A stretch of DNA of 64,000 bases from Patescibacteria group bacterium (GCA_023379025.1 JAMCTH010000005.1:20663-84662), one strand, 5' to 3'. Shown: positions 1 to 63,834, counted from the stretch's first letter. The notes: a model not told the origin generated them from the letters alone. Made by a program: numbers and translations.

Positions 1-815
1 TGTTCCGTATATTCTACGACTTTTATCCTCTGCCGTTGCCAATCAATGGTTTTAGCATTGTACATGGCGATATCTGCCTGATTAAAGAGATCCTGTGCAG
101 TTAAACCCGGAAGACTCTCCTGATTAAAATGAACTACTCCTACGCTTAATCCTATGGCTTCCATACCTGGTAGGTTCTTATTCAGCTCATACTGCCGTTC
201 CAATCTGCGTTGTAATTCTTCTACCGGTATATCTCCCGCTCCGAAAAATATCAGTCCGTACTCATCTCCATTTTCTGCCTTGCCGGCTACATGGGCATCG
301 ATGTTTCGACGAGTCCCGTCAAATCCAAGGCCCGCGATATCATACGGCCTCTTGATTGCGGAAACCATGTTACCCACCGTCTGAAGCACCTGATTACCAA
401 TCTCATGCCCATGTACATCGTTTACGCCTTTTTTAAAATGATCAATATCGATCACGATAACTGATACGGTTCCAGGGATGTTCTCCCGGATCATATCCAT
501 ATACCGATTAGTTATGCTAACAAGAACTGGTTTATTCGGAAGACTGGTAAGATAATCGCGTTGGGCCTTTTGGGCTTCGTAAAACGATGACACAACTCCA
601 CGCCTAAGCATACTCTCAAACACGGGTACGTCGACATTGGGTAAGGCAATAGGGAGAAGCCGGAATAACAAATCGTCATAAAGCCGTGCATATTCCTCAC
701 GAAGGTGTGCTTTAAGACCGCGGAGAAGAAGAGGGGGAGGCTTGTACCGAAGCCGATTATAAGCCTCGCGCTCGGGTAATGACAGAAGCTCCAATGCACC
801 TTCCGATGGACTCAT
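1..815 (-). CDS. GGDEF-domain (diguanylate-cyclase-like) protein, N-terminal ~270 aa; C-terminus lies beyond window start
   Basis: Minus-strand frame runs from ATG at 815..813 (ATGA overlap with the gatB stop) to position 1 without a stop; it is absent from the ORF track because no stop lies in the window. Translation includes [29 protein letters not shown], matching the GGDEF-domain DxDxFKxxND block. The expected RxGGDEF motif reads [10 protein letters not shown] and is degenerate. Confidence 0.5.
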
Positions 816-2224
816 AGCGAATAGTTTGCCAATAATTCTTTCAGTCGCGTGAGGATCAATTTTGGGTCCGCAGCAATCTGCTTCCTCACCTGTCCCATAA
901 GGAACATAAGGCTTGCTTCCTTGCCGTTTTTGTAATCGGCGGCGGCTTTGGGATTGTCCGTGATGGCCTTCTGAATTGCGGCATCCACGTCATCGTCGGA
1001 TACGGTTACCGCCTCTGACGCTTCCATAATGCGTTTCACAAGCTCGGCAGGAAGCACCGTCTCCGTATCGATGCCGCGGTTGATAAGCCAGTTCGCTATC
1101 TGTTTCGGCGTGACCGGGGCTTTTGCGCCGAGCGTACGGCCTACCCGTACGGCTTCCTCAAAGTAGTCGGCGCGCTGCCGCCTCTCCGTAATGCGTACGG
1201 CATCGGCTGCGTTGAGCCCGTAGTCCTTCGTAAACCGGGAACGCTTCGCGTCCGGCAGCTCCGGAATCCGGGATCTGAGCACTGAAATTTGGGATCGTCT
1301 CCACTGCATGGGAGGGATATCCGGCTCCGGAAAATAGCGGTAATCGTTTGCTTCTTCCTTATGGCGCTGCGGCACGGTCATGTTTTTGCCTTCGTTCCAT
1401 CCGCGCGTTTCCTGGACGGGCTCTTCCCCGCGGACCAGAACTTCGGTTTGACGGGCTATTTCATACTCGAGTGCCTTCCTGCCGAAGCGGAACGAATTGA
1501 TGTTTTTGAGCTCCACGCGATAGGGCGGCAATGCCTTTAAATCTTGGGATGTCGGGTTTTTTGGAGATTTGGTCATTGGGATTTGTGATTTACGCATCGA
1601 TATTGACGGTTCGAGCCTCATGCTGCCTTTTTCCATATCCGCATTGGAAATGCCGAGATAGCGCACGATCTCCTGGAGTTTTTTGAGATAAATGTCGACT
1701 TCGTCAACCGAGCAAAAATCCGGCTCCGTCACGATCTCGACAAGCGGCACGCCGCTCCGGTTAAAGTCGATAAGGGAGACGTGCCTGCCGTCTACGGTCT
1801 CGTGGAGGAGCTTGCCCGTATCTTCTTCCATGTGGACCCGGCGGATACGGATCGGCTTGGCGCTGCCTCCCGGCAATGCTATCGAGAGAAGTCCCCCGAT
1901 ACAGAGCGGCTGATCGTACTGACTGATCTGATAGCCCTTGGGCAGATCAGGGTAAAAATAATGTTTCCGGTCGAATTTACTCACTTCGGGGATGCTGCAG
2001 CCCAAGGCAAGCCCCAACATGATGCACCACTCGACCGCCTTCCGGTTCGGGACAGGAAGCGCTCCCGGAAGCCCCAGACATACCGGACAGCAGTCTGTAT
2101 TGGGCTTGTGGCCGAAATAGTCGGCACTGCAGCCGCAGAACATCTTGCTCCGGGTCGCAAGCTCGACATGGACTTCCAGACCGATGACCGGTTCGAATTG
2201 CTGATCCATACTCATGATACGCAC
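812..2224 (-). CDS. gatB: Asp/Glu-tRNA(Asn/Gln) amidotransferase subunit B
   Basis: 470-aa ORF with [48 protein letters not shown] and [11 protein letters not shown], all GatB hallmarks. The ORF-track start is GTG at 2224; an in-frame ATG at 2215 or 2206 is the more likely start. Confidence 0.9.
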
Positions 2225-2251
2225 ACTTCGATGTATCGATACATCGAAGTG
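2224..2251. repeat. Perfect 28-bp palindrome CACTTCGATGTATCGATACATCGAAGTG filling the gatA-gatB spacer
   Basis: Read directly: the two halves are exact reverse complements centred on ATCGAT. The 22-bp core ACTTCGATGTATCGATACATCG recurs at 5592..5613. Confidence 0.8.
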
Positions 2252-3667
2252 TTAAAACCCCTCGGGATGTACGTTGTAATATGCTGTTTCTTTCTCAAAT
2301 GCCGCACCGATTTTATATAATAATGGTTCCGAAAACTGCGGCCCGGCGAGCTGCATGCCGACCGGCAGACCCCGGGTAAATCCGGCGGGAACGGAGAGTG
2401 ACGGAACCCCCGCGATGTTCATGGGACAAAGGAATATATCGGAAAGGTACATCGTAAGCGGGTCGGCCGTCTTTTCCCCGATCCGAAACGGCGGGGTCGG
2501 CGATGAAGGAACGAGAAGTGCGTCAACCGTCCCGAAGACGTCAGCAAAATCTTTCCTTATGAGGGTACGTACTTTCGAAGCTTTACGGTAGTAGGCGTCG
2601 TAATAGCCTGCGGAAAGCGTATGCGTCCCGAGCATGATACGGCGCTTGGCCTCCGGTCCGAAGGTGTCACGACCCAGACCGAAACGCACACCGTCAAACC
2701 GTGCCAGGTTCGAGCTGATCTCGGAAGGCACGAGGATGTAATAGCAGGCCATGGCCGCTCCGGTATGCGGGAGGGACACCTGCCGTACCGCGGCACCGAG
2801 TTTCTTGAATACGAGGACCGCATCCTCAATGGTTTTCGCTACGTCCGGATCCATACCTTCGACCCCGTAGTATTCTTTCGGCAGACCGATCGTGACGCCT
2901 TTGAGCGTTCCCGTCGTTTTCGGCACATACGCCGGTACCGCAACATCCGCCGTGGTCGCGTCATACGGGTCGTGACCCGCAGTGACTCCCAAGACCATGG
3001 CATTATCGCGGACGGTCCGCGTGATATGGCCGATCGTATCAAAGGAGGACGCCATGGGGATGATGCCGTACCGGGATACCCTGCCATAGGTAGGCTTGAG
3101 TCCCACCAGGTTGCAGTACGCGGCGGGAAGCCGTACGGAGCTGCCGGTATCCGTGCCCGTGGCCATGAGGCACATACCGCTTGCGACAGCCGCGGCAGAG
3201 CCGGAACTCGAGCCGCCGGGAACGCGACCGGTGTCATACGGATTTCTCGTGGGTTCGTAGTCCGTGTTTTCTCCCGAAGACCCGTGTCCCCAGGCATCCT
3301 CATTGGTTTTTCCGACGATAACCGCACCTGCTTCTTTGAGTTTATAGACTACGGTGGCGTCAAACGGAGGAACATAGCTCCCGATGATCCGGGAACCTGC
3401 TGTCGTGCGGATACCTTTTGTCGTAAACAGGTCTTTAAGGGCGACCGGGATACCGAGAAGCGGTCCGTCCAGTCCCCCGGCAATGCGTCTGTCTGCTTCA
3501 TCTGCAGCCGACAATGCCTCATCTTCCGTGACGGTCAGAAAGGCATGGAGGGAACCGTCATATCGCCTGATACGCGCAAGGCACATCCCGGTAAGCTCAC
3601 GGGAAGAAATGGTACGGGCCCGAAGCTTTTGCCGCGCTTCTTCGATGGTCATATATGCTGTATCCAT
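2252..3667 (-). CDS. gatA: Glu-tRNA(Gln) amidotransferase subunit A (amidase family)
   Basis: 471 aa with the amidase signature GGSSSGSAAAVA and the GatA-like N-terminus MTIEEARQKL...; it sits between gatC and gatB. Confidence 0.9.
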   Translation of the reverse strand: MDTAYMTIEEARQKLRARTISSRELTGMCLARIRRYDGSLHAFLTVTEDEALSAADEADRRIAGGLDGPLLGIPVALKDLFTTKGIRTTAGSRIIGSYVPPFDATVVYKLKEAGAVIVGKTNEDAWGHGSSGENTDYEPTRNPYDTGRVPGGSSSGSAAAVASGMCLMATGTDTGSSVRLPAAYCNLVGLKPTYGRVSRYGIIPMASSFDTIGHITRTVRDNAMVLGVTAGHDPYDATTADVAVPAYVPKTTGTLKGVTIGLPKEYYGVEGMDPDVAKTIEDAVLVFKKLGAAVRQVSLPHTGAAMACYYILVPSEISSNLARFDGVRFGLGRDTFGPEAKRRIMLGTHTLSAGYYDAYYRKASKVRTLIRKDFADVFGTVDALLVPSSPTPPFRIGEKTADPLTMYLSDIFLCPMNIAGVPSLSVPAGFTRGLPVGMQLAGPQFSEPLLYKIGAAFEKETAYYNVHPEGF

Positions 3668-3668
3668 G

Positions 3669-3995
3669 CTATGATTCCCCGTCCAAAATTGCTTTCACTT
3701 TCACAAATCCGTTATAAGCATCCGGTGCGTTGGCAAGTACTGCATCCTGGGAGAGGGAACGGGAGGGATCAACGACGTCTTCACGGAACACGTTTGAACG
3801 CCCGGTGACCTGCGAAGTCTCCTCGACGCCATCTGTCGGCGTGGCCGAAAGTTCGGAAATATATCCGACGACCCGGGTGAGTTGCGGAGACAGTGTTTCT
3901 TCTTCTTTCGTCGAAAGCCTAAGATGAGCAAGTGCCGCAGCGTGCTGAATGTCATGACGCGTCAATGAGACTGCTGATCTTTTCTGTTGCCCCAT
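3669..3995 (-). CDS. gatC: Asp/Glu-tRNA amidotransferase subunit C
   Basis: 108-aa protein immediately upstream of gatA with a 1-bp spacer, giving the gatCAB order; size and charge pattern fit GatC. Confidence 0.7.
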   Translation of the reverse strand: MGQQKRSAVSLTRHDIQHAAALAHLRLSTKEEETLSPQLTRVVGYISELSATPTDGVEETSQVTGRSNVFREDVVDPSRSLSQDAVLANAPDAYNGFVKVKAILDGES

Positions 3996-4033
3996 GCACT
4001 CATTATACCGGAAAGGGCTACGTGAGGAAATAA

Positions 4034-4273
4034 TTATGGGAAATATCCCAGGGACTCGAAAAGTCCTCCGGCTCCTGAGGTGAACGCCCGGGACAAAACC
4101 GGATCGGAGCGGATAAGGGGAAGTGACCAGGCAAGGATATAAAAAAATTCCTCAACATCTGCTCTAAGACTTACTTCGGCACATGTCGACTGCTGAAGAT
4201 TCCATGCAGTCATCCGTCCAAGGGTTTCTGCCCACCCCGGCGTACCGATAATCTCCGCGGCAACGGTTTCCAT
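4034..4273 (-). CDS. Hypothetical small protein (79 aa) in the gatD-gatC gap
   Basis: The only ORF in the 306-bp same-strand gap; no recognisable motif. It could instead be an untranslated spacer or promoter region. Confidence 0.2.
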   Translation of the reverse strand: METVAAEIIGTPGWAETLGRMTAWNLQQSTCAEVSLRADVEEFFYILAWSLPLIRSDPVLSRAFTSGAGGLFESLGYFP

Positions 4274-4301
4274 CAGAATACATCCAGTATACCACCCGGC
4301 G

Positions 4302-5108
4302 TCAGATACGGTTCAAGACGGCAGTTTGAGCACGGTATTCGAGCGTGTCATCAAGCGCGGGTAACGGAATCCGTTTTCCGTATTTGGTTTCAAGCGCGCG
4401 TTGTATCAGCCAGTCCGCAAGCAGCGGATTTTTCGGGAGAAGCGGCCCGTGGAAGTAACTGCCGACGGCATGCTTATAGACGGCACCTTCAAAACCGTCT
4501 TCCCCGTTGTTCCCGAACCCTTTGATGACTTTTGCCAGGGGCTTGAGCGCCGGTCCGAGGTACGTCCTGCCGCCGTGGTTTTCAAATCCGACAATAGTAG
4601 TTCTTTTAGTCATTCTGGCGTGTCCAGAATCTGATTCTGGAGTCGCTGACGCTCCCCAGAATGACGGCAAAATCTCGGCAACCACGTTTCCTATCAAACG
4701 TTTGGCCTGATCGCCGGAGTGCTCGGTATAGAGGTCAAAAATTCCCGGACCGGGAATGCGGTCCCCCTGATAGGGCTTGTAATACCTCCCGACCGCCTGA
4801 TACGCGGCACAGACAAAGAGCGCCGGGACTCCGCGTTCCACCATGTCTCTCATAATCGGGCTTTTCCGCTCCAGAAAATCACGCCCGGCGATTTTCTGCT
4901 GCCGGTCCTGCGCCCCTCCCATGAAGATAAGGTCGGAGGATTTCAGTTCGCGGACCGCTGTACCGAGGCTAATGTCTTTGACTATAACATCAATACCCCG
5001 CCACTCGGCCCTTTTGGTAACCGCGATGATATTCCCGCGATCCCCGTACGTGGACATAAGATCCGGATAGAGCCACGCGATATTCAAATTCATTGTTATA
5101 ACAACCAA
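4302..5108 (-). CDS. gatD: Lipid II isoglutaminyl synthase, glutamine amidotransferase subunit (CobQ/CobB-type GATase)
   Basis: 268 aa, GATase1-like with a VCAAYQ cysteine region and a conserved HGP block; lies immediately downstream of murT, the canonical MurT-GatD pairing. Confidence 0.75.
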   Translation of the reverse strand: MVVITMNLNIAWLYPDLMSTYGDRGNIIAVTKRAEWRGIDVIVKDISLGTAVRELKSSDLIFMGGAQDRQQKIAGRDFLERKSPIMRDMVERGVPALFVCAAYQAVGRYYKPYQGDRIPGPGIFDLYTEHSGDQAKRLIGNVVAEILPSFWGASATPESDSGHARMTKRTTIVGFENHGGRTYLGPALKPLAKVIKGFGNNGEDGFEGAVYKHAVGSYFHGPLLPKNPLLADWLIQRALETKYGKRIPLPALDDTLEYRAQTAVLNRI

Positions 5109-5153
5109 AATGTGCCGTCAGTGTAAATGAATCGATTCATTTACACTGCGGTT

Positions 5154-6479
5154 TTACAGAATGTGTTTACCTGTAAGAATCTTTCTCACCTCTAACATCG
5201 CCGAATAGGTCGGCAGGACATACAATGTTTCGCCCGGTCGGACCCTGTCTAGCGCGCTCTCGATTGCGCGCGGTAGCTCCGGTTCTCTGTGGTATTCCGT
5301 CATACCCGAATATTTCATCCGGAGCGCCAGGTCATATACCCGGTCGCCGCTTACGACAGCCTGTACACCGGGAGGGACCGTTTCAAAATCCACATCCCAG
5401 ATCCAGGACACGTCGCGCCCGTCCGGAATCCGGTCATTAAGGACCAGGAGGACCGCTGTTGCCTTCAGTTCGATGACCGTGCGCAGTGAAGCGTTAAAGC
5501 CGGCCGGGTTTTTTGATAAGAAAAGTTTTATCTTCTTCCCGTCTTTGACGAATTCTTCCTGCCTGCCGAATGCGGGCGTAAATCCCGCGAGACTTCGATG
5601 TATCGATACATCGGTGCAACCAACGAGTTTCCCGACGCATCCTGCCGCGCGCGTGTTGTAAAGATTATAGAGCCCCGGAAGCGGAGACCGGAGCCGGGAG
5701 GCCTGCACCGGGGGCCTTGCGAAACCGCAATGCGGGCATGACCATACGCCCAAATGAGAAAAGTAAACGCCCTGGTAGAAAAGCTTCCGGCCGCAGCGCG
5801 GACAGTATGCGGAATCAGTGGCATGTTCCGCCTTTTTTAAGAAGAAAGACGGCGAGTCAATCCCGAAAAACACCGTCGGGAGAGCGCTTTTTTGGGCTAT
5901 AGAGACGATGAGCGGATCATCGGCATTGGCAATAAGCTGAATGTCAGCACATTGTCTTCCCCTCTTCCCGTCTCCCGGACTCCGTATCTTTAATGCCTTC
6001 TCCCACTTTTCGGCGATGATGTCGACTTCCCCGTACCGGTCGAGCTGATCGCGGAAAAGGTTGAGGAAAACAATGTTGACCTGACGGCCGTGCATGAAAG
6101 GTAACAGCAGCGGTAATGAATTTTCGTCTACTTCAAACACGCCCCAATCCGCATCGATACGTCCCGTCCGGGAAGCAGATTTGATGCATGCGGAAACGAT
6201 GCCGTTCAACAAATTTGCTCCGCTTGCATTATGCACAATCCGCTCACCGTTATCCTCAAGAATTTTTTTGATCATGAGGGAAGTGGTCGTTTTCCCGTTG
6301 GTTCCCGCCACAATGATGACGCCTTTCCGGAGATCCGAGGTAAAATCGTTGAGTATGTCCGGCTTAGCATAGAGTGCAAGCTCTCCCGGCCATGTCGCAC
6401 CAGCGCCAAGATTCAAAAATCTGCTTAGACGGGAAACGAGGTTATTCAGGATTACGATTACGGAAATCGGAATATTCAT
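5154..6479 (-). CDS. murT: Lipid II isoglutaminyl synthase, Mur-ligase-family subunit MurT
   Basis: 441 aa with the Mur-ligase P-loop VAGTNGKTTT, a Cys-rich segment CPRCGRK...CPHCG, and a C-terminal domain typical of MurT (DUF1727). Confidence 0.8.
   Translation of the reverse strand: MNIPISVIVILNNLVSRLSRFLNLGAGATWPGELALYAKPDILNDFTSDLRKGVIIVAGTNGKTTTSLMIKKILEDNGERIVHNASGANLLNGIVSACIKSASRTGRIDADWGVFEVDENSLPLLLPFMHGRQVNIVFLNLFRDQLDRYGEVDIIAEKWEKALKIRSPGDGKRGRQCADIQLIANADDPLIVSIAQKSALPTVFFGIDSPSFFLKKAEHATDSAYCPRCGRKLFYQGVYFSHLGVWSCPHCGFARPPVQASRLRSPLPGLYNLYNTRAAGCVGKLVGCTDVSIHRSLAGFTPAFGRQEEFVKDGKKIKLFLSKNPAGFNASLRTVIELKATAVLLVLNDRIPDGRDVSWIWDVDFETVPPGVQAVVSGDRVYDLALRMKYSGMTEYHREPELPRAIESALDRVRPGETLYVLPTYSAMLEVRKILTGKHIL
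5592..5613. repeat. Second copy of the 22-bp palindromic core, inside murT coding sequence
   Basis: Exact 22/22 match to 2225..2246; it encodes TDVSIHRS in MurT. Confidence 0.8.
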
Positions 6480-6556
6480 CCTGAAAGCAATTATCTCACA
6501 CCCGCTGTGTCATTTCGAATGAAGCGAAAGTCAGGAAGTTATTCGACAGCTGTCAT

Positions 6557-7549
6557 TTACATGGACCGGAGTATTTTTATCCTCTCCTCAATCGGCGGAT
6601 GCGTGTCAAAGAGTCCTGCAAACCATGAGCCGAAACTTTTGCCTTTGAACGGATTGACGATGAAAAGATGCGCCGTCGCATTGGTGGACTGCGCCATAAC
6701 GTGCCGGTCGGCGGCAAGCTTCTCAAGCGCCCGCGCCAGTCCTTCCGGATACCGGGTAAGGTAGGCGCCCGACGCATCGGCCAGAAGTTCGCGCCGCCGC
6801 GAAACGGCAAGCTGGATAAGGGTCGCGAGGACCGGTGAAATGATGGCAAGAACGATGCCGACGACGAGAAACAGCTGCCCGCCGGAACGGTTTTCGTCGC
6901 TCTCTCTTCTGCCGCCGCCCCACCAGAGGCTCCTCATGAAGAGATCCGTAAGGAACACGATAGTACCGACCAGGACTGCAACAACGGCAAGAAGCCGCGT
7001 GTCGTAATTTTTGACATGCGACAGTTCGTGGGCTATGACGCCCTCAAGCTCCGTACGGTCGAGCTTCCCGAGGATGCCGCTTGTGGCGCAGACCACGGCG
7101 TGCTGAGGATCCCGGCCCGTCGCAAACGCGTTCATGGCTGGGTCGTCAATGACATAGAGTTTGGGCTTGGGGAGCCCGGCTGCCATGGCGAGATTTTCTG
7201 CAACAGTATAGAAGTTAAAGTCGCGCTTACGGTCCGCGGGGCGCGCGCCCGTCATGGCCAGAACCATCTTGTCCCCCCAATAGTAACTGCCGAAGCTTGA
7301 AATGACGGCAAGAAATACCGCTATCCACATCCAGGAGTTGCCATACCCCAGAGCCTGTCCCAGGACATAGCCGATGAGGACGACAAATACGACAAACCCC
7401 ACCATAAACGCATAGGTTTTGGTTTTATTGGACGAAATCTGCGATTGTATACTCATATCTTTTACTTCCCCGACGGAACACCCCCACCAGCCACCGGATA
7501 TAGCCTCAACCGCTTCCAGTGCTTCGGGAGAAAGTCCCCTATCAGACAT
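6557..7549 (-). CDS. htpX: Zinc metalloprotease HtpX (M48 family)
   Basis: HELSHVKNYD (HExxH) zinc motif, N-terminal TM helices and a typical HtpX C-terminus; the real start is probably the internal ATG near 7456 (MSIQSQ...). Confidence 0.85.
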   Translation of the reverse strand: MSDRGLSPEALEAVEAISGGWWGCSVGEVKDMSIQSQISSNKTKTYAFMVGFVVFVVLIGYVLGQALGYGNSWMWIAVFLAVISSFGSYYWGDKMVLAMTGARPADRKRDFNFYTVAENLAMAAGLPKPKLYVIDDPAMNAFATGRDPQHAVVCATSGILGKLDRTELEGVIAHELSHVKNYDTRLLAVVAVLVGTIVFLTDLFMRSLWWGGGRRESDENRSGGQLFLVVGIVLAIISPVLATLIQLAVSRRRELLADASGAYLTRYPEGLARALEKLAADRHVMAQSTNATAHLFIVNPFKGKSFGSWFAGLFDTHPPIEERIKILRSM

Positions 7550-7555
7550 GACGCG

Positions 7556-8113
7556 TTACTCAAAAGCAACGTGTACGGGTTTTTTATCCTCATCCGACGC
7601 ACCGAAAAATTCCTTTTCCGCAAATCCCATCTGACCGGCCATGAGGTTGGTCGGGAACATACGGATTTTCGCGTTATAGTCCATGACGGTCGTGTTGTAA
7701 AATTGCCTGCTGTAGGCTACTTTGTCTTCCGTGTCCGTCAGTTCACGCTGAAGCTCCAGAAAATTTTCATTGGCTTTCAGCTGCGGATAGTTTTCCGCAA
7801 GCGCGATAAGCTTCCCCAACGCATTGGTCAGAAGGTCGCTTGCCGCAGCTTTTTTCGGGACGGATGTAGCTCCCAGCATGGCTTTATGGGCGTTCGTTAC
7901 TTCAGTGAAAACGCTTTTCTCGTGCTTAGCATACCCCTTGACGGTCGCGACAAGATTAGGGATGAGATCAGCGCGCCGCTTCAACTGCACGTCTATCTGA
8001 GCCCATGCCTCCTCGATCTGGGTCTTCATGGACACGAGACTGTTGTACATGCTCCAGAGCCAGAGCGCTATAAGGACAACAATTCCTCCGATGATAACGA
8101 GTGGTGTAGACAT
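7556..8113 (-). CDS. lemA: LemA family membrane protein
   Basis: 185 aa with an N-terminal TM helix plus the LemA core, in the classic lemA-htpX pairing. Confidence 0.8.
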   Translation of the reverse strand: MSTPLVIIGGIVVLIALWLWSMYNSLVSMKTQIEEAWAQIDVQLKRRADLIPNLVATVKGYAKHEKSVFTEVTNAHKAMLGATSVPKKAAASDLLTNALGKLIALAENYPQLKANENFLELQRELTDTEDKVAYSRQFYNTTVMDYNAKIRMFPTNLMAGQMGFAEKEFFGASDEDKKPVHVAFE

Positions 8114-10832: not shown

Positions 10833-10880
10833 AAGCCTGAAGCTTCAGGCACTAAAAATTTGGCAGAGTTGCCAAATTTT
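10833..10880 (+). terminator. Two tandem hairpins downstream of the LysM gene, candidate intrinsic terminator
   Basis: GCCTGAAGCTTCAGGC is a perfect 16-bp palindrome; AAAAATTTGGCAgagTTGCCAAATTTTT is a 12-bp stem flanked by A/T runs. Confidence 0.4.
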
Positions 10881-10885
10881 TTAGG

Positions 10886-10959
10886 TGCGGGATTAGTACA
10901 CCGGTAGTATGCCACCTTCCCAAGGTGGAGAAGCGAGTTCGATTCTCGTATCCCGCTCC
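10886..10959 (+). tRNA. tRNA-Gly (anticodon CCC), CCA encoded
   Basis: Acceptor GCGGGAT/ATCCCGC, anticodon stem-loop CCACC-TTCCCAA-GGTGG and T-loop GTTCGATTC. Confidence 0.8.
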
Positions 10960-11146
10960 AGACGGGACACCTTGCCCCGAAAAGGTCTTAATGTATTGAT
11001 ATAACGGGCTAATCATGAAATTTACAACAATATAAACAAAATTGATTTACCTTCAAATAGGGTTTCGGAGAGACGGAAATCGAACTCAAAATGTTTAAAA
11101 TCAACTTGGCCTTGACAATTCTCATATTTTCTGATATTCTGAAAAT

Positions 11147-11404
11147 ATGAAAGCAGTAAGCATTATTCGAGATAGGGGCCAATTGACCATTCCTGATTCT
11201 ATTCGTCAACTCGTTAGTTGGGTGGCTCCCTTATCTGCGGTAACAATTTCAGTTAGAAAAGCAGACGAAATTGTCATAACGCCTCACCAAAATTATGTTA
11301 ACTGGGAAGGGATTTGGGAAGGCATTAAAAAATCCAGAGCTATAAAAGGCAAAGGCAGCATCAACGCAGCAAAGTTTTTAGAATTTGATCGTAACTCACA
11401 CTAA
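11147..11404 (+). CDS. vapB: AbrB/MazE/SpoVT-type antitoxin (VapB-like)
   Basis: 85 aa with an N-terminal AbrB-fold swapped-hairpin pattern (VSIIRDRGQLTIPDSIRQ); its stop overlaps the next ATG (TAATG) in an AT-rich islet. Confidence 0.6.
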   Translation: MKAVSIIRDRGQLTIPDSIRQLVSWVAPLSAVTISVRKADEIVITPHQNYVNWEGIWEGIKKSRAIKGKGSINAAKFLEFDRNSH

Positions 11405-14408: not shown

Positions 14409-15551
14409 TCAGGTATCCCGCGGTTCCCCGTCGGGAAGGGAAAGGAGTTTGATATCCGGGAGACTTGCTCCCATGATGCCCTGGAGTTCTCCGTACATAT
14501 TGGCGATGTTTTCGAGGGTGCGGGTGATGTCCAGTTCCCGCTTTTTCCAGAGGCGCTGCACCGACCGCTTCTCCGTTTCGAGGTCCTGCTGCATGGCGAC
14601 GATCCCCTCGACATACGCCTCAAACCGGTGCCGGAAGGTATCGCTCTGGAGATAGCCGTAGAGTTTTTCGAGTTTCTCATCCTTGTTAGCGGCCGTTGAT
14701 TTGGCCGCCGCCGTCAGCATGATGCTCCTTCTCAGTATTGTGGCAAGCGGAAGCGCATAATGGATGTCCGTCACGAGCACGTTATCGATAAATCCGAAGG
14801 TATCGATATCCCTGGGGAGCGTTTCGCTGACCAGGACGGACAGGCTTGCATCCGCTTTCCGTCCGTCTTCCCGAAGCTTCGGGAGCCATGACGGGCTCCA
14901 TTTGGCGCGCTTGGTCTCCCAGAGGATTGAACCGGCCGTCTGTCCGTAGGAGTTGCGGACCGTCTCGAGGACGTCGCCGCCCTGTGCCCCTTTGGCAATC
15001 GGAGTAATTTCATCGTGGGGGAAGGCGCTACGGAGTTTGGCTTCCAGGTCGAGCTCCAGCACCTCGCCCTGGAGCTGCTGGGATTTCTGCTGTGCCTTGA
15101 GGTTTGCCTCGGCAAGCGCTTTCTGCGTGTCCGTCAGCTGTTTTTTGAGTTCAAGGATCTGAAACTCGGCTTTTTCCTGAAGGGTTTTCGTAAGTTCCGA
15201 ACGCGCTTTGTCTATCTCTTCGGACAGCCGTTTCTGGTTTTCGAGTTCCGTTTTGTCGTTTTTGTCCCTGAGTTCCCGAAGCAGTTTGTTGAGGTCAAGA
15301 AGCTGTCCGGAGAGTTCTTTATTGCGGCTCCTGAGCTCCGCCATCTCGTTTTCCTTATCTTTAAGCGTCAGTTCCGCCAGTGCTGCTGCTTTTTGTTTCG
15401 CCTGCTCTTCCGCAGCTTTCCGCGCGTCGGCAAGCTCTTTGGCGTGCTGGCCCGCAACGTCACGAAGGAGATCTTCCTTCATGTCGTGCATGAGCGCTTC
15501 CGTAATCTCGATCTCTTTGCCGCAGTACGTGCAGGTGACATGCGTCAGCAT
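14409..15551 (-). CDS. DUF2130-like coiled-coil protein with N-terminal CxxC
   Basis: N-terminal CTYCGKEI, a long Lys/Glu-rich coiled coil, and a C-terminal region with KGAQGGDVLE and WETKRAKWS blocks resembling DUF2130. Confidence 0.5.
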   Translation of the reverse strand: MLTHVTCTYCGKEIEITEALMHDMKEDLLRDVAGQHAKELADARKAAEEQAKQKAAALAELTLKDKENEMAELRSRNKELSGQLLDLNKLLRELRDKNDKTELENQKRLSEEIDKARSELTKTLQEKAEFQILELKKQLTDTQKALAEANLKAQQKSQQLQGEVLELDLEAKLRSAFPHDEITPIAKGAQGGDVLETVRNSYGQTAGSILWETKRAKWSPSWLPKLREDGRKADASLSVLVSETLPRDIDTFGFIDNVLVTDIHYALPLATILRRSIMLTAAAKSTAANKDEKLEKLYGYLQSDTFRHRFEAYVEGIVAMQQDLETEKRSVQRLWKKRELDITRTLENIANMYGELQGIMGASLPDIKLLSLPDGEPRDT

Positions 15552-24820: not shown

Positions 24821-26833
24821 ATGAAAAGGTATTTAAGTATACTTATAATCCTTTTTGTTCTGTTGGGTTTTCCGCAGCCTGCCCGGGCAGCAGTAATTTT
24901 CTCTGATTCCTTTTCCGGCGGTTATAATTCCTCATGGTATATACCTGATGGTACGATTTCCCCTATCTCATCAACTCATGGTATTACAGCAGCCAATGTA
25001 ACTAACCCATGGAGCGCAATTGCCTTTCCTTTGACTAGTAACCAAACCTACGATATTAGCTTCGATCTTTGGATAAATTCAACAAATCTTAACAGCGCAT
25101 GGGGTGGCGGTATAAATGATAATAGTGGCCATTGGAAAGGTTTTGGAAACTGGGTGGGGACTGGTAACTTGGGGTATGACAATTACCTACAAATTCATGA
25201 CTCAGAACGCGCTGAAAGTATGGTTGTCTGGGACCATAGTCTAGGACTTCACCATCTCGAATTCGTTATTTCTCCAATTGGAGGTACAAATTTTATCGCG
25301 ATCGAGGATGGTAAGGAACTAACATCGCTAACCACTAACGCCAACTTTAATATTACGGCAACTACGGTCTCCTTTTTTGGTCATGGCGATTACGAAATGG
25401 CAAACTTTGTGCTCTCTACTTATGAAGAGCCGACTCCAACACCTACCCCGACCCCCACCCCGACCCCCGAACCCACGGCGACTCCCACCCCCGAACCGAC
25501 ACCGACGCCGACACCGGAACCGACCCCCACCCCCGTCCCTACGGCAACACCTACGCCGGAAGCAACTCCGACCCCCACCCCGACCCCGCCGCAGAAAATC
25601 GTTGTGATCCCCGGGCTCGGGGCGAGCTGGAATGCCGATGCAATACTCTCCTGCACATTTTCTCCCGATGAAAGCTGGACCATGAATCCGCTCGCTGAAA
25701 TCATATATACACCGCTTATGCAGAGGCTTTCCGATGCCGGCTATGACGTCATCCCGTTTTACTACGACTGGCGGAAATCCGTTCCCGAACACGCAGCCTC
25801 TCTCCAGAACCTGATCCGGAGCCGCTTATCAGCCAATGAGCTCATCGACATCGTCGGGCATAGCATGGGAGGCCTGGTCGGCCGGGCATATCTGGAAGCA
25901 TATCCCCAAACGCACGGCATCGGTAAGCTCCTGACCGTCGGAACGCCGCACCGCGGCACTGCCCTCGCCTACCCTGCCTGGTCCGGCGGCGAGGTGTGGG
26001 GAGACCTGTTATGGAAATTTTCCGCAACCGCGATACTCAAGCACTGCGGTGGGTTCGTGTCTGATCGGAGGGAGACGCTCCAAACTATCATGCCCGCTGC
26101 GGCGAACCTTCTTCCGACCACGGACTATCTCCGTGACCGTAAAACCAAAACCATGCTGCCGCTCGGGACTATGTCCGCACAAAACACCTGGCTTCCGACT
26201 GCGGGTTTTTCCCCTCCGTTTAACGGCGCTTCCGTCGGCACCATGGCCGGCACCGGCTTCTCCACACTCCGGAATATCGACGTCCAGAAACCGACGAAGC
26301 GCGATGTGCGGCTCGGCAACTGGCTCGACGGCAAACCCGCAGGCAAAGAATACGATACCGCCGGCGACGGCACCATTCTGGCAACAAGCGCCTTAGTGGA
26401 AGGTACGACCCAGATCACGATACCGCAAACGCATTCCGGCCTTATCACGTCTGCGGAAGGTAAAGAGGCAATTGTCGGATTTTTCTCGGGTCTCGCACCC
26501 GAGACACTCAGAAAACCGCTCCTGGGAGAACCTTCCTCACTGCCGCCGGAAACCGCGCTCGTCGTCATCGCCCATCCATCCATGTTCTGGCTTTTTGATG
26601 CAAACGGCGCCGCAATCCGCGACCAGGATGGTATGGCTGCTGTGGTAAACCCGAAAAACGGAACATACCGGCTCCTCATATTTCCGAAGGGAGCCAAGAC
26701 GACCCTTATCGTCGGACAGTTCCTTGCAAACGACCGGATACTCTGGAAGGAATACACCCTCAAGAACCAGCTTCCCAAATACCGCGTCATCCGCTTCAAC
26801 GACAAAACGCCCAAAGAGAACGCCGTAGAATAA
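24821..26833 (+). CDS. Secreted class-2 lipase/esterase (alpha/beta hydrolase) with N-terminal unknown domain and Thr/Pro linker
   Basis: Signal peptide [23 protein letters not shown]; an AT-rich N-terminal domain of about 190 aa; a 55-aa (T/E)P linker; and a C-terminal hydrolase with [15 protein letters not shown] (the AHSMGG lipase_2 nucleophile elbow). Confidence 0.7.
25428..25590 (+). repeat. Coding low-complexity repeat (Pro-Thr-Pro-Glu codon repeats) inside the lipase gene
   Basis: Iterated ACNCCNACNCCG-like units encode [55 protein letters not shown]; it is not a CRISPR array because the units are irregular, without unique spacers, and are translated in frame. Confidence 0.8.
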
Positions 26834-37451: not shown

Positions 37452-37489
37452 TGAGGCAACTCTGCTTCAGTAAAAGCGCCCATTCATGA

Positions 37490-37523
37490 TTCAACCCGTC
37501 GGGTTGAATAGGTTTAAACCTAT
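37490..37523. repeat. Copy A of a ~30-bp two-hairpin element (CAACCCGTCGGGTTGAATAGGTTTAAACCT), candidate bidirectional terminator / island boundary
   Basis: AACCCgtcGGGTT hairpin plus the perfect 18-bp palindrome AATAGGTTTAAACCTATT; it is located between the convergent ABC exporter and ORF 37573..38052. Confidence 0.6.
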
Positions 37524-37572
37524 TGGACGCCAACCACTAGCGAGGTACTCAACACTCCTCAATAGCTGCCCT

Positions 37573-38693: not shown

Positions 38694-38912
38694 ATGCACT
38701 TAACTCGCGCTCAACAGATTTTGCGCATACTCGGCTGGGCTGGGGTGGTATTCCTCTTCGGGCTCACACTGATCCTCGGCGTCCATCCGGAGGTAACCAT
38801 TGGTTTCGGACCGCTCACGATTTCCGCGGTCGTACCAATCGGCGCAACAACGGTCGTCGAGGGACTTTGTCTCTACTTTAAAAAGGGACCAGCAACCCGT
38901 CGGGTTACTTAG
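38694..38912 (+). CDS. Hypothetical small membrane protein (72 aa)
   Basis: GGAGGAATAAAATG start context and two hydrophobic helices; its stop lies inside repeat copy B. Confidence 0.4.
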   Translation: MHLTRAQQILRILGWAGVVFLFGLTLILGVHPEVTIGFGPLTISAVVPIGATTVVEGLCLYFKKGPATRRVT

Positions 38913-38922
38913 GTTCAAACCT
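38893..38922. repeat. Copy B of the two-hairpin element (CAACCCGTCGGGTTacttAGGTTCAAACCT)
   Basis: 26/30 identical to copy C; the 4 central nt differ. Confidence 0.55.
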
Positions 38923-39446: not shown

Positions 39447-39564
39447 AGTGCTTCTTCAGCGTTAACTCCCAGTAGCAAAAATGCAGGGATGTCAAATTCG
39501 TCTTCCTTAGGTAGAAGATCATCGTATCTCGGTCATGGCCTTCTCAATTTTATGAATAGGATTG

Positions 39565-40350
39565 CTAATCTAGAACAGCAATCATACGTTCTGCCTGTAC
39601 TAAAAACGCTTCCATTGTGGAGTCGTTTTGAAGAGTGATAGTCGCAAAATTCCGAATTTCTTCCAGAAGCGCATGTTCTTGTTCCTCTCGTGATTGAAAC
39701 GATTCTACATCTCCGGATCGACTGGAATCCAATAGTGCACGTGCCTCTGCACGCCTGCGTCTCATCTCATAGTCTCTCGCACTATCATCAGGATTCAACG
39801 TGACAAAAATTACGTTTCCAACCGCCTCCTTCGGTCGTCTTGGACCGAATAAAACCAACTTAGTGTAACCCGTTTCGGCCGATTTCAAAATCGCAAGCCT
39901 CACTAAAATATCATCACCGAACATTTCCTTGAAACTAATCCCGACGTCTATTTTATCCTGGTTGTTATTACGATCCTTTCCCCACGCAGTTGCAATATCC
40001 CGCGCCATATCGGAAAACGTGATGAGGTGATAGTTGTGGGCTGCAAAAACTGGCCGTAATGCGTCTTTCCAGGAAAGTTGGTGACCGGCTACTGTCACAA
40101 CATTTACCCCATTCATTTGCGGTCCGAGGCGCTGTACCCTATCCACGACTCTCCCGAAGTGATCAGTAAGATACTCAGTTATACAGACGGTGGATAGTGT
40201 GGGTTCAAACCTCGCCACTCGATTACTTAGATCCTGCATAACCCGGATAAAAAGTTCCTCATGCCTGTCTTTAAGGGTTGACGAAGGTTGAAGTGCTAAA
40301 GCAAGACAGAAATAAAAGAAACAACAACCCGTCGGGTTGAATAGGTTCAA
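39565..40350 (-). CDS. Hypothetical protein (up to 261 aa; true start probably downstream of the ORF-track TTG start)
   Basis: Long minus-strand ORF with no recognisable motif (no P-loop, no HTH seen); its 5' end as drawn overlaps repeat copy C. Confidence 0.4.
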   Translation of the reverse strand: MNLFNPTGCCFFYFCLALALQPSSTLKDRHEELFIRVMQDLSNRVARFEPTLSTVCITEYLTDHFGRVVDRVQRLGPQMNGVNVVTVAGHQLSWKDALRPVFAAHNYHLITFSDMARDIATAWGKDRNNNQDKIDVGISFKEMFGDDILVRLAILKSAETGYTKLVLFGPRRPKEAVGNVIFVTLNPDDSARDYEMRRRRAEARALLDSSRSGDVESFQSREEQEHALLEEIRNFATITLQNDSTMEAFLVQAERMIAVLD

Positions 40351-40354
40351 ACCT
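40325..40354. repeat. Copy C of the two-hairpin element (CAACCCGTCGGGTTGAATAGGTTCAAACCT)
   Basis: 29/30 identical to copy A; it sits 8 bp beyond the ftsZ stop codon. Confidence 0.6.
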
Positions 40355-40362
40355 GTTCTCTC

Positions 40363-41562
40363 CTAACTCCTCTGCCGCAGGAATGCGGGGATGTCGAATT
40401 CGTCTTCCTCGGGCGGAAGATCATCGGAAGCAGACGGGAACGTTGAAGACTGCGCCGGCTGCACCGGAGTTTGCCGTGGCTGAAAATTCTGCGGCTGTTG
40501 CGGCTGCTGAGCCGGTTTCTGATAGACGGAAGTGTTCCCGCCCATGGCGCCGCCCGTCATCGCCCCGCCCATAGCCGGACGCCCCGATAATTCCCGGAGG
40601 CGCTTTTTGGTTTCGTCAAAGCCTGTGGCTATCACCGTGATTTTCACCTGGTCGACCAGGTGGTCGTCGATGGTTGCGCCGAAGATGATATTGGCATCGG
40701 GGTCGACAGCCGCGGCTATCTGCTTAGCCGCCTCATCCACTTCGCTCATGGTCAGGTCCGGACCGCCGGTGATGTTAAACAATACGCCTTTGGCCCCTTC
40801 TATGGAAAGCTCAAGAAGCGGCGATGCGATAGCGGTGCGTGCCGCGGTTGCCGCCCGGTTTTCCCCGACGCCGGTACCGATACCCATAAGGGATGATCCT
40901 GCCTTGGTCATGATAGTCCGGACATCGGCAAAGTCAACGTTTATAAGTCCCGGCATGGTGATAAGATCCGCTATCCCCTGCACCCCCTGACCGAGCACCG
41001 AGTCAGTCACCCTGAAGGCCTCAAGGAGGGTCATTTTTTTATCGATGACGTCAAGGAGCCGTTGGTTGGGGATAACGATGAGGGTATCTACTTTATCCTT
41101 CAGGTTCATGATCCCCTCTTCGGCGGTCACCATCCGCCGCGTTCCTTCGAAATGAAACGGCTTCGTGACGACGCCGACGGTGAGGGATCCGAGCTCGCTC
41201 GCGATCTCCGCAATGACGGGTGTTGCCCCGGTACCGGTTCCTCCGCCTTCCCCGCAGGTCAGGAACACCATATCGGTATCGCGGAGATATTCCTTGATTT
41301 TCTCCCGTGATTCTTCTGCGGCCTGTTGGCCGATGTCCGGATTGCCTCCGGCGCCCAATCCCCGCGTCAGATTTTCCCCGATCTGGATCTTCGTCGTCGC
41401 CTGACAGGTCAGAAGCGCCTGGGCATCGGTGTTGAGCCCGATGAAATCCACTCCCGCAATCTGATTGACACCGATCATGGAGTTGAGGGCGTTGGAACCC
41501 CCTCCGCCGATGCCGATAACTTTAATTTTGGCAAAATGCGCAATATCGGGTTTTATAAGCAT
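40363..41562 (-). CDS. ftsZ: Cell division GTPase FtsZ
   Basis: [14 protein letters not shown], the tubulin signature GGGTGTGA, a T7 loop and a C-terminal Q/P-rich tail ending [10 protein letters not shown]. Confidence 0.95.
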
Positions 41563-62953: not shown

Positions 62954-63834
62954 AGTTTTTCCGCAACGCGCAGTTTTGCGCTTCTTGCACGTCTATTCTG
63001 AGACAGTTCCCGGGCATTTGGTGTCAGCGGTTTTTTCGTTACCATGTGCCACGGACCGGTGCGCATTTCCTGTTTGACCATACGGTCTTCCAGCGAATGA
63101 AAACTCAAAACGACCAGTCTTCCGCCACGCTTTACGAGTACCCGCGATCCCTCAAGACCTTCCCTGAGCGCTCCCATTTCGTCGTTTACCGCGATCCTGA
63201 GCGCCTGATAAACCCTCGCGGCAATCCCGGGAATTTCCGCAATGTGGTGACCCGCATCCTTCACTATTGCCATGAGTCCGTCTGCCGTTTTCACCGGTCT
63301 TACCGAACGGGCGCGCACAATACCATGAGCAATGCGCCGAGCAGACTGTTCTTCACCATATGTTGCCAGAATTTCATACAAGTCATCCTCCGACAGACGG
63401 CGTAGTAGTGATTCCCCTGTTTCACCGCTCGTTCTGTCAAACCGAAGATCAATAGGTGCATCAGGAAACCGATAACTGAATCCCCGCTCTTTGGTATCGA
63501 GCTCAAAGCTCGATACCCCGAGATCAAACAGCATTCCTTCCACGTTCTCCCATCCGGTATCTTTGGCTATGGTCACCACATTGCGGAAATTCCCTTTTAC
63601 GATAATCCAGTCTTTCCCTTCCTCCGCTTCGGGTCGTACCCTGCGTAGGTTCCTCCGCGCTTCCGCAACCGCATCGGCATCCGCGTCGATCCCCAGCACT
63701 ATGCCACCCTGTTCCACAATACCCAGAGCGTGTCCTCCACCCCCTGCCGTTGCATCTATATACCGCTTCCCTCTCCGAATACCTAGGGCGTCAATAACTT
63801 CTTTTGCCAGTACCGGCGTATGAAATGTGCTCAT
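62950..63834 (-). CDS. rsmH: 16S rRNA (cytosine1402-N4)-methyltransferase RsmH (MraW)
   Basis: HTPVLAKEVIDAL, DATAGGGGH, SFHSLEDRMVK. Confidence 0.9.
   Translation of the reverse strand: MSTFHTPVLAKEVIDALGIRRGKRYIDATAGGGGHALGIVEQGGIVLGIDADADAVAEARRNLRRVRPEAEEGKDWIIVKGNFRNVVTIAKDTGWENVEGMLFDLGVSSFELDTKERGFSYRFPDAPIDLRFDRTSGETGESLLRRLSEDDLYEILATYGEEQSARRIAHGIVRARSVRPVKTADGLMAIVKDAGHHIAEIPGIAARVYQALRIAVNDEMGALREGLEGSRVLVKRGGRLVVLSFHSLEDRMVKQEMRTGPWHMVTKKPLTPNARELSQNRRARSAKLRVAEKL

Follow-up and report, generated by a model that had tools for sequence, protein, structure and literature searches.

The murT-gatD-gatCAB locus and its palindromes

A window of 64,000 nucleotides from a Patescibacteria group bacterium (GCA_023379025.1, JAMCTH010000005.1:20663-84662; positions are counted from the first base of this window) contains murT, gatD, gatC, gatA and gatB as a single co-directional gene array on the minus strand. 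Two spacers of this array are occupied by perfect 30-bp palindromes, designated P1 and P2, and an exact 22-nt copy from P1, designated P1', is located within murT; the three sites were listed without a strand. The first gene, murT (5154..6479), encodes the ligase subunit of the lipid II isoglutaminyl synthase, as indicated by the Pfam domains Mur_ligase_M plus MurT_C and by the gene calls in a second assembly, L001. It is followed by gatD (4302..5093, GATase_3, start codon from the L001 gene call) for the CobQ-type glutamine amidotransferase partner of MurT, by gatC (3669..3965, GatC), by gatA (2252..3667, Amidase, E value of 1.5e-140), and by gatB (812..2215, GatB_N and GatB_Yqey), which starts with the ATG at 2215 according to L001. 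These Pfam matches agree with the identities of gatA, gatB and murT given in an earlier note that had been made from the sequence of the window alone. A 79-aa open reading frame (ORF) without a Pfam match at 4034-4273 on the minus strand, between gatD and gatC, is kept in all three assemblies of the organism. The window genome is Microgenomates-like Patescibacteria. Its MurT is identical to an NCBI protein entitled "Patescibacteria group bacterium"; the next relatives are 56-59% identical, the named ones being mostly Gottesmanbacteria. The GC skew of the window is monotonic.

P1, ACACTTCGATGTATCGATACATCGAAGTGT, is located at 2223-2252 in the gatA|gatB spacer. On the gene strand, it begins with the final base of the gatA stop codon and leaves 8 nt to the gatB ATG; 28-29 of the 36 nt of this spacer are thereby filled. 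The earlier note had described a perfect 28-bp palindrome filling the whole spacer: the perfect symmetry stands, and the element is 2 bp longer and leaves part of the spacer free. The layout of P1 is ACT-TCGA-TGTA-TCGA-TACA-TCGA-AGT, with three palindromic TCGA tetranucleotides at a spacing of 8 bp. When the window was Markov-shuffled 200 times, the longest perfect palindromes measured 12-22 bp, and none reached 30 bp.

The 22-mer ACTTCGATGTATCGATACATCG is present exactly at 2225-2246, on the other strand at 2229-2250 owing to the palindromic nature of P1, and again at 5592-5613 in murT. It was matched in none of 100 shuffles of the window, so that its recurrence is not a chance event, as already proposed. 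In murT, the 22-mer is read in frame as T-DVSIHRS, again as described before. P1' is palindromic only over the inner 18 bp (5596-5613), the outer arm on one side being replaced by the threonine codon ACC, and two of the three TCGA units remain; in its sequence P1' is a truncated copy of a P1-type box.

P2, CAGTGTAAATGAATCGATTCATTTACACTG, at 5119-5148 in the murT|gatD spacer, had not been mentioned before. It is located 5 nt past the murT stop codon and 25 nt ahead of the gatD ATG. P1 and P2 have a common centre, ATGwATCGATwCAT, and different arms. Since the P2 core, AATGAATcgATTCATT, is identical at 14 of 16 positions to a palindrome that brackets a gene for a TrpR-like protein at the locus L129, P2 probably represents a related or neighbouring specificity class of the box. 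The L129 palindrome was the sole relative found, and P2 itself was absent from the other Microgenomates loci, 754 kb in total. Three matches in viral contigs that resulted from the search with P2 were discarded as chance matches or as an inverted repeat at the contig end.

P1 and P2 are among only five hairpins with a stem of at least 11 bp in the 64 kb. Exact cores in the window are those of P1 and P1'. Degenerate copies were found neither for the 22-mer and the 16-mer with up to three mismatches nor for the 14-mer core with up to two, and the 18-mer with up to five mismatches gave nothing beyond three chance-level matches with five mismatches each. The same sequences are present in two independent Logan assemblies (L001, 100% identity; L002, 99.9% identity), and the palindromes are therefore not an assembly artefact.

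A scan of the gene strand for sigma-70-like promoters gave a single match within positions 2000-6700, TCGAAA-17-tgGATAAT at 6490..6518 (minus strand) upstream of murT, which is a consensus match only. With this single match, P1', P2 and P1 would be internal to one transcription unit. As RNA, P1 and P2 are predicted to form hairpins of -20.1 kcal/mol (z = -5.6) and -26 kcal/mol (z = -5.5), respectively. An intrinsic terminator was considered and rejected for both sites: no U-tract follows P1 or P2, which are succeeded by GCGUAUCAUG and ACGGCACAUUUUGG, respectively, and neither was reported by the terminator scan. A search of window positions 1-8000 with the Rfam covariance models yielded only two sub-threshold chance matches located elsewhere.

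A palindromic box in Microgenomates genomes

The 18-bp core CGATGTATCGATACATCG was searched as an exact match in one genome per GTDB species. Compared to about 9 matches expected (596 Gb divided by 4^18), 101 stretches were found, nearly all of them in Roizman-, Gottesman- or Shapirobacteria or in unnamed Patescibacteria. A handful of matches in unrelated phyla are not extended as palindromes and look like the matches expected by chance. The consensus of the flanks extends the palindrome to TACTT-CGATGTATCGATACATCG-AAGTA, which is P1 itself. By this comparison, P1 belongs to a family of 26-30-bp palindromic boxes conserved across Microgenomates (Patescibacteria).

Each genome contained 4-9 exact-core copies, or roughly one in every 70-150 kb. 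On contig JBAZVQ010000001.1 (802 kb), for example, they are located at about 430, 584, 760 and 774 kb, spread over about 345 kb. The palindrome was perfect over at least 24 bp in 72 of 106 copies. In genomes of about 34 to 54% GC, 26 nt of the box do not vary, and the outer arms vary by lineage (ACTT, GTTT, GTAT, CTAC), yet are symmetric and uniform within a genome. Only 4 of 127 occurrences of the 12-mer half-sites were solitary. In 709 kb of loci, 106 exact cores stood against about five near-matches. Viral contigs searched for the 18-mer core contained none.

A number of AT-rich metagenome-assembled genomes (MAGs) entitled "uncultured Gammaproteobacteria bacterium" (ENA "binchicken"; L006, L009, L012, L013, L018, L020, L021, L025-L027, L030, L037, L040, L042, L045, L047 and others) carry many boxes, the TrpR-like gene, and genes and synteny of the Roizmanbacteria type, as exemplified by L094 in comparison to L052. 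Because genes and synteny are common with Roizmanbacteria, these MAGs belong with Microgenomates, and their label is probably wrong.

A TrpR-like protein gene bracketed by the box

The box family is physically coupled to a gene for a TrpR-fold protein, and the sequences of both co-vary. At loci ascertained through the palindrome, an ORF of 126-153 aa is enclosed, in eight genomes, by two boxes at a distance of 420-570 bp. One box lies not more than 12 nt past the stop codon of this ORF, and another precedes the ATG by 13-105 nt in six of the eight. Ten metagenome loci were ascertained through the protein; retrieved with a four-sequence alignment, they comprise only close relatives (60-100% identity), and seven of them have a box 0-10 nt past the stop. 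Among nine diverse family members, which are 25-37% identical to the Roizmanbacteria protein, eight have a palindrome that precedes the ATG by 5-16 nt, the exception being L126. A matching or related palindrome is present 0-48 nt past the stop, again in eight of nine, with some copies imperfect. The palindromic site at the gene's own 5' end was seen in these relatives, outside the window. In L117 and L125, -35/-10-like hexamers, as read by eye, abut the box.

The bracketed ORF matches Trp_repressor of Pfam above threshold, with E values of 4e-9 to 2e-15. The NCBIfam models for TrpR and YerC/YecD match the bracketed proteins below their curated cut-offs, except for yecD_yerC with the L062 protein (43.8 versus 42.2 bits), and yecD_yerC was among the best two NCBIfam matches of each protein tested. 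A profile search of the PDB with the bracketed protein returned 3FRW, 3KOR and 3G1C. For residues 11-101 of an AlphaFold (AF2) model, the predicted local distance difference test score (pLDDT) was about 90. The 36 best Foldseek matches of this model in the PDB were, without exception, TrpR or TrpR-like chains, among them the tandem-binding complex 1TRR. The protein is about 45 residues longer at the C terminus than TrpR, and two additional helices there were modelled with low confidence. It contains solely a helix-turn-helix (HTH) domain and no nuclease or recombinase domain.

The sequence of the recognition helix and the class of the palindrome change together. Proteins with STST or STAT in this helix go with a palindrome centred on TATCGATA. 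To these belong L125, in which the gene is flanked on either side by the exact P1 motif, L117 with TACTTTCATCTATCGATAGATGAAAGTA, and L122 with a 42-bp version comprising three TATCGATA units. SLxT goes with TTTTAAAA or TTTCGAAA; the palindromes of L121 and L128 contain CATGTTTTAAAACATG and TTTCGAAA, respectively. TQNT is associated with AATTAATT, as in L129 with TTGAATGAATTAATTCATTGAG on both sides, and SAPT with TTTAAA, as in L130 with AATGATTTAAATCATT. This co-variation was seen in a small sample of about 12 lineages, without statistics.

The gene neighbourhood differs between lineages (rplM-rpsI-glycosyltransferase cluster, proS-HIT, lepB-rpsG, uvrD-DUF2298). Within Roizmanbacteria, however, the order rplM-rpsI-GT2-GT4-gene-variable gene-GT4 is stable (GT2 and GT4, glycosyltransferases), and on this ground the TrpR-like gene behaves as a chromosomal gene and not as a transposon.

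As a box upstream of a gene can be free of stop codons, calls of the start codon can be distorted. In P0183, a database protein of the TrpR-like family, the annotated start evidently runs the ORF into the upstream palindrome, which is stop-free in every frame. The GTG at 2224 of the window that is listed as a start codon for gatB, within P1, is another example.

Other long perfect palindromes exist in Microgenomates, namely the families (A)CCTGCCTGCCGGCAGGCAGG(T), GTAGAGAC..GTCTCTAC and ..AATGTTTTAAAACATT.., which were seen in L018, L028 (two copies), L085 and L117 (1841-1862), in L077 (6322-6349) and L090 (2242-2269), and in L015, L033, L044 and L047. In L044, a canonical short YerC/TrpR paralogue is directly preceded by ..AATGTTTTAAAACATT.., and the palindrome CATGTTTTAAAACATG that brackets the long TrpR-like gene in L121 is a CATG-flanked relative. 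Several protein-palindrome pairs seem to coexist in Microgenomates genomes.

Location and evolution of the copies

Seventy-four of the 106 copies (about 70%) are located inside called genes, in all three frames and without change of protein length. Genes holding or adjoining copies encode a UvrD-like helicase, MurC-MurB, TsaC-TsaE, RsmI, NnrD, glycosyltransferases, a lamin-tail-domain protein, threonyl-tRNA synthetase and serine hydroxymethyltransferase. In the housekeeping genes, the copies occupy orthologous positions, in frame within long ORFs. About 17 of the 32 intergenic copies are found within 18 nt of a stop codon, like P1 and P2, and, if boxes preceding the TrpR-like gene itself are left aside, only one is not more than 10 nt away from a start codon. 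Neither a link of the boxes to division or segregation genes was seen, nor does the box by inspection resemble the parS consensus TGTTNCACGTGAAACA.

The earlier note had regarded the two copies of the 22-mer as a hint to shared regulation of two glutamine amidotransferase operons. The genes form one array, the box is phylum-wide, and among about 100 loci, which stem from about 35 other genomes, none carries a copy near murT, gatD or gatCAB, so that the idea of a private repeat joining these operons was abandoned.

How a box comes to be inside a gene is illustrated by MurT and TsaC. When MurT of the window was aligned with 27 orthologues, the segment that contains TDVSIHRS was fixed in length and variable in sequence, with the consensus GIxDxxIxxALxxF. 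The orthologues do not conserve TDVSIHRS, which would have explained the 22-mer at the protein level: only the D and the I are kept, and the peptide DVSIHR is unique to the window MurT, being absent from the other 119 of the 120 closest homologues. A shorter loop in orthologues without the repeat, which the earlier note had proposed to look for, was not found, since none of the 28 aligned sequences shows a change in length. In 120 orthologues of TsaC-TsaE, the sequences directly following the conserved GxRxP form a graded series of equal length, with MYRYIE. in 59, MYQYIEVL in 5, MYQPIKEL in 8 and x[FY]QLINRL in about 20 proteins. Compared as DNA, the steps of this series differ from the 22-mer by 0, 1 and 8 mismatches. 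Direct repeats flanking the boxes were not observed. Because orthologues of equal length display graded mismatches, boxes are, judged by these alignments, formed or lost in place through point substitution, without insertion. An inserted miniature element, such as a miniature inverted-repeat transposable element or an in-frame palindrome of the Rickettsia type, was rejected for the same reason and in the absence of a target-site duplication, and with it the miniature mobile repeat that had been offered as the alternative explanation of the 22-mer.

Other repeats in the window

A repeat of about 41 nt (..CAACCCGTCGGGTTGAATAGGTTCAAACCT) is present in three copies at 37481-37521, 38882-38922 and 40314-40354, about 1.4 kb apart and each with a small hairpin, AACCCGTCGGGTT. 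The 18-bp palindrome AATAGGTTTAAACCTATT (37507-37524) overlaps one of these copies, and a pair of 50-nt repeats at 39475 and 40377 is 84% identical. Taken together, the 41-nt repeats and the 50-nt pair resemble paralogous gene units arranged in tandem, which would have a 3' or 5' signal in common. A perfect 24-nt inverted repeat, GGGAATTTCCGCAATGTGGTGACC, has its arms at 63229-63252 and 63571-63594, 318 nt apart, with an 11-bp-stem hairpin at 63493-63517 between them. The 16-bp perfect palindromes GCCTGAAGCTTCAGGC and TCCCGAAGCTTCGGGA (10835-10850 and 14869-14884) have lengths within the range of the shuffles, as has the 18-bp palindrome CACCTGGTCGACCAGGTG at 40645-40662, but the common centre GAAGCTTC of the two 16-bp palindromes is notable. 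The gene for tRNA-Gly (10887-10960) is surrounded by two long, A/T-flanked hairpins, AAAAATTTGGCA-GAGT-TGCCAAATTTTT at 10854-10881 and TCATATTTTCTGA-TAT-TCTGAAAATATGA at 11122-11150, which look like bidirectional terminators. A C-rich repeat with a period of 12 nt, CCGACCCCCACC..., at 25419-25598 would encode a Pro/Thr-rich linker.

Interpretation of the box as a probable protein-binding site

The association of the box with the TrpR-like gene, the tracking of the recognition helix by the palindrome class, and the precedent of the protein family together suggest that the protein binds the box. The box would then be an operator-type binding site of a lineage-specific, YerC/YecD-related HTH protein of 126-153 aa with TrpR fold and a C-terminal helical extension. 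This is the probable, albeit by no means certain, explanation, and it agrees with the earlier impression that P1 looks, as DNA, like the operator of a dimeric protein, to which the conservation of the box in Microgenomates and its position around a TrpR-fold gene have now been added. By analogy, the three TCGA units at 8-bp spacing suggest binding of overlapping or tandem dimers. A box upstream of the regulator's own gene would mediate autorepression, and P1, 8 nt before the gatB ATG, would possess the geometry of such an autoregulatory box. As a speculation, an occupied P1 would most likely act as a roadblock to the RNA polymerase coming from gatA or occlude the initiation of gatB translation. 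Boxes would appear and decay at sites that can accommodate them, namely in spacers directly past stop codons and in variable protein segments, and are not confined to amidotransferase genes.

Several results weigh against an operator function of this kind. The TrpR-like gene was not found, either by tblastn or with the family hidden Markov model on six-frame translations, in the 68.8 kb that comprise the 64-kb window and a 4.8-kb extension from L001, and its presence in the window's genome is therefore an assumption. The synteny anchors proS, HIT, rpsG/rpsL and rplM/rpsI are likewise absent from the window, and amino-acid composition singled out no GC-rich orthologue among 120 listed family members. 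A majority of intragenic sites next to genes without a common function is atypical for a classical repressor, and no coherent regulon emerged from the genes downstream of the intergenic boxes. The scan found no promoter-like site adjoining P1 or P2. If gatA were cut off from gatB, or murT from gatD, by such a block, the subunits of obligate complexes would be made in unequal amounts, for which a regulatory purpose is hard to see. The preference of intergenic boxes for positions past stop codons also fits a role at RNA 3' ends, and any perfect palindrome predicts a stable RNA hairpin as well. Finally, most loci were ascertained by an exact match, so that the apparent conservation of the box is inflated.

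In another reading, the sites would be part of a genome-wide system peculiar to Microgenomates, not of a metabolic repressor, with the protein acting as a chromosome-architecture or occlusion factor or in a global network of transcription roadblocks. This is possible but rather doubtful. In that case, the boxes inside unrelated housekeeping genes, about 70% of the total, would be kept there against the protein-coding constraint, the double-bracketed regulator gene would titrate the level of the protein to the number of boxes, and P1, P1' and P2 would be three sites clustered within 3.4 kb.

Explanations that do not require a DNA-binding protein must also be considered. P1 and P2 in a polycistronic mRNA would be hairpins with a 13-bp stem and a UCGA loop at cistron boundaries, and may protect the upstream cistron against 3' exonucleases, serve in processing or termination, or sequester a weak Shine-Dalgarno-like sequence, GAAG, which precedes the start of gatB by 8 nt; the association with the TrpR-like gene would be secondary. 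The hairpin at the gatB start that the earlier note had suggested belongs to this group and is possible. The predicted folding energies, the location of P1 and P2 0-5 nt past stop codons, the similar position of about half of the intergenic boxes and their scarcity at start codons, and the A-tract/T-tract flanks of several copies in AT-rich genomes, which resemble bidirectional terminators, would all suit such an element. Yet pairing would suffice for a hairpin, whereas here the stem sequence itself is invariant over 26 nt despite the range in GC content; G-U pairs and site-specific compensatory changes are missing, and arm variants are uniform per genome. A terminator or stabiliser within an ORF, where 70% of the copies reside, is senseless. 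Together with the missing U-tracts, the lack of an Rfam match and the shift of the palindrome class with the recognition helix, this renders an RNA-level function unlikely. Even less probable is a selfish element, in which a cassette of palindrome, TrpR-like gene and palindrome would have spread together with solo palindromes by transposition, gene conversion or excision, leaving P1, P1' and P2 as functionless copies or footprints. A gene flanked on both sides by a genome-dispersed repeat is the hallmark that links repetitive extragenic palindromic (REP) sequences with REP-associated tyrosine transposases (RAYTs), the cassette is found in different neighbourhoods in different lineages, exact cores far outnumber near-matches, and a solo intergenic box like P1 would result if the two flanking copies recombined. 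Nevertheless, the flanked protein is an HTH-only protein of TrpR fold, synteny is stable within lineages, intragenic copies bring neither an insertion nor a target duplication, orthologous positions step through 0, 1 and 8 mismatches, and the copies are few per genome and absent from the viral contigs. A coincidence, or an assembly or adapter artefact, behind the identity of the 22-mers has a negligible probability. An 18-bp palindrome alone would be within the range of the shuffles, 38 of 200 of which reach 18 bp, but the 22-mer was matched in no shuffle, the sequences are equal in three independent assemblies, and the box occurs in frame in long ORFs and at orthologous positions in about 35 other genomes.

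Comparison with known systems

E. coli TrpR recognises a repeated palindromic element, CTAG/GNACT, at 8-bp spacing and binds its operators at trpEDCBA, aroH and trpR in tandem. The bracketed protein has the same predicted fold, the box is likewise a palindromic operator-like sequence with a 4-bp element, here TCGA, at 8-bp spacing, and a box over the promoter or 5' end of the regulator's own gene again implies autoregulation. In contrast to TrpR operators, the box is 26-30 bp long and of other sequence, a second box directly follows the stop codon of the regulator gene, and 4-9 near-perfect boxes exist per genome, 70% of them in unrelated genes and without a context of tryptophan biosynthesis.

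Operators of TrpR and HisR are in general palindromes of about 20 bp with a lineage-specific consensus, an 8-bp spacing of the half-sites and frequent autoregulation (PMC9413887). HisR (YerC/YecD) from Firmicutes and other phyla shares with the system described here the protein family, the lineage-specific palindromes and the frequent autoregulation (PMC9413887), and the ends of its motif, cacTT...AAgtg, resemble those of P1. HisR sites, however, are 20 bp long and located upstream of genes for histidine biosynthesis or transport, whereas the box is 8 bp longer, mostly intragenic and without his genes.

Dispersed short palindromes, a gene flanked by two copies, and intergenic copies just past stop codons within operons are also features of REP sequences and REP doublets (REPINs) with their RAYTs. 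A REP/RAYT palindrome was rejected because an HUH (Y1) transposase is missing, most copies are in ORFs, and copy numbers are in the single digits instead of hundreds; the box is, moreover, kept across order- or class-level divergence, whereas REPs are species-specific. The earlier note had connected occurrence at dozens of unrelated loci with a generic REP-like element. The box does occur at that many loci, but in numbers per genome and intragenic positions that do not agree with an element of that kind.

The DNA uptake sequences and uptake signal sequences (DUS/USS) and the cyanobacterial highly iterated palindrome HIP1 are likewise found in coding regions, in all frames and at tolerant positions, evolve by substitution, and have more exact than near copies. 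They occur about once per kb, compared to about once per 70-150 kb here; half-sites of the box are almost never solo, and a candidate cognate HTH gene is bracketed. An uptake signal was discarded on account of this density and of the rarity of solitary half-sites.

SlmA, Noc and MatP have been recruited from transcription-factor folds. The pairs SlmA and its binding site SBS, Noc-NBS, MatP-matS and ParB-parS have in common with the box a low number of near-perfect palindromic sites, mostly intragenic regardless of gene function, and a protein of transcription-factor fold, although binding is predicted here, and sequence and protein family differ.

Biological meaning

Because bacteria of the Candidate Phyla Radiation (CPR) are largely uncultured, their gene regulation and chromosome organisation are barely known. 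In the literature searched, no description of the motif was found, and no link between Trp-repressor proteins and Patescibacteria; as far as these searches show, the 26-30-bp triple-TCGA box, the box-gene-box architecture and the mostly intragenic copies kept against the coding constraint are undescribed. For the annotation of CPR genomes, this advises caution: perfect palindromes in operon spacers should not be taken as operon-specific attenuators. In MurT, TsaC, MurC and UvrD, the box represents a signal at the DNA level that overrides codon and amino-acid choice in essential genes. With the box, an identifiable candidate protein family and the stereotyped box-gene-box architecture, a directly testable protein-DNA pair is available for these organisms.

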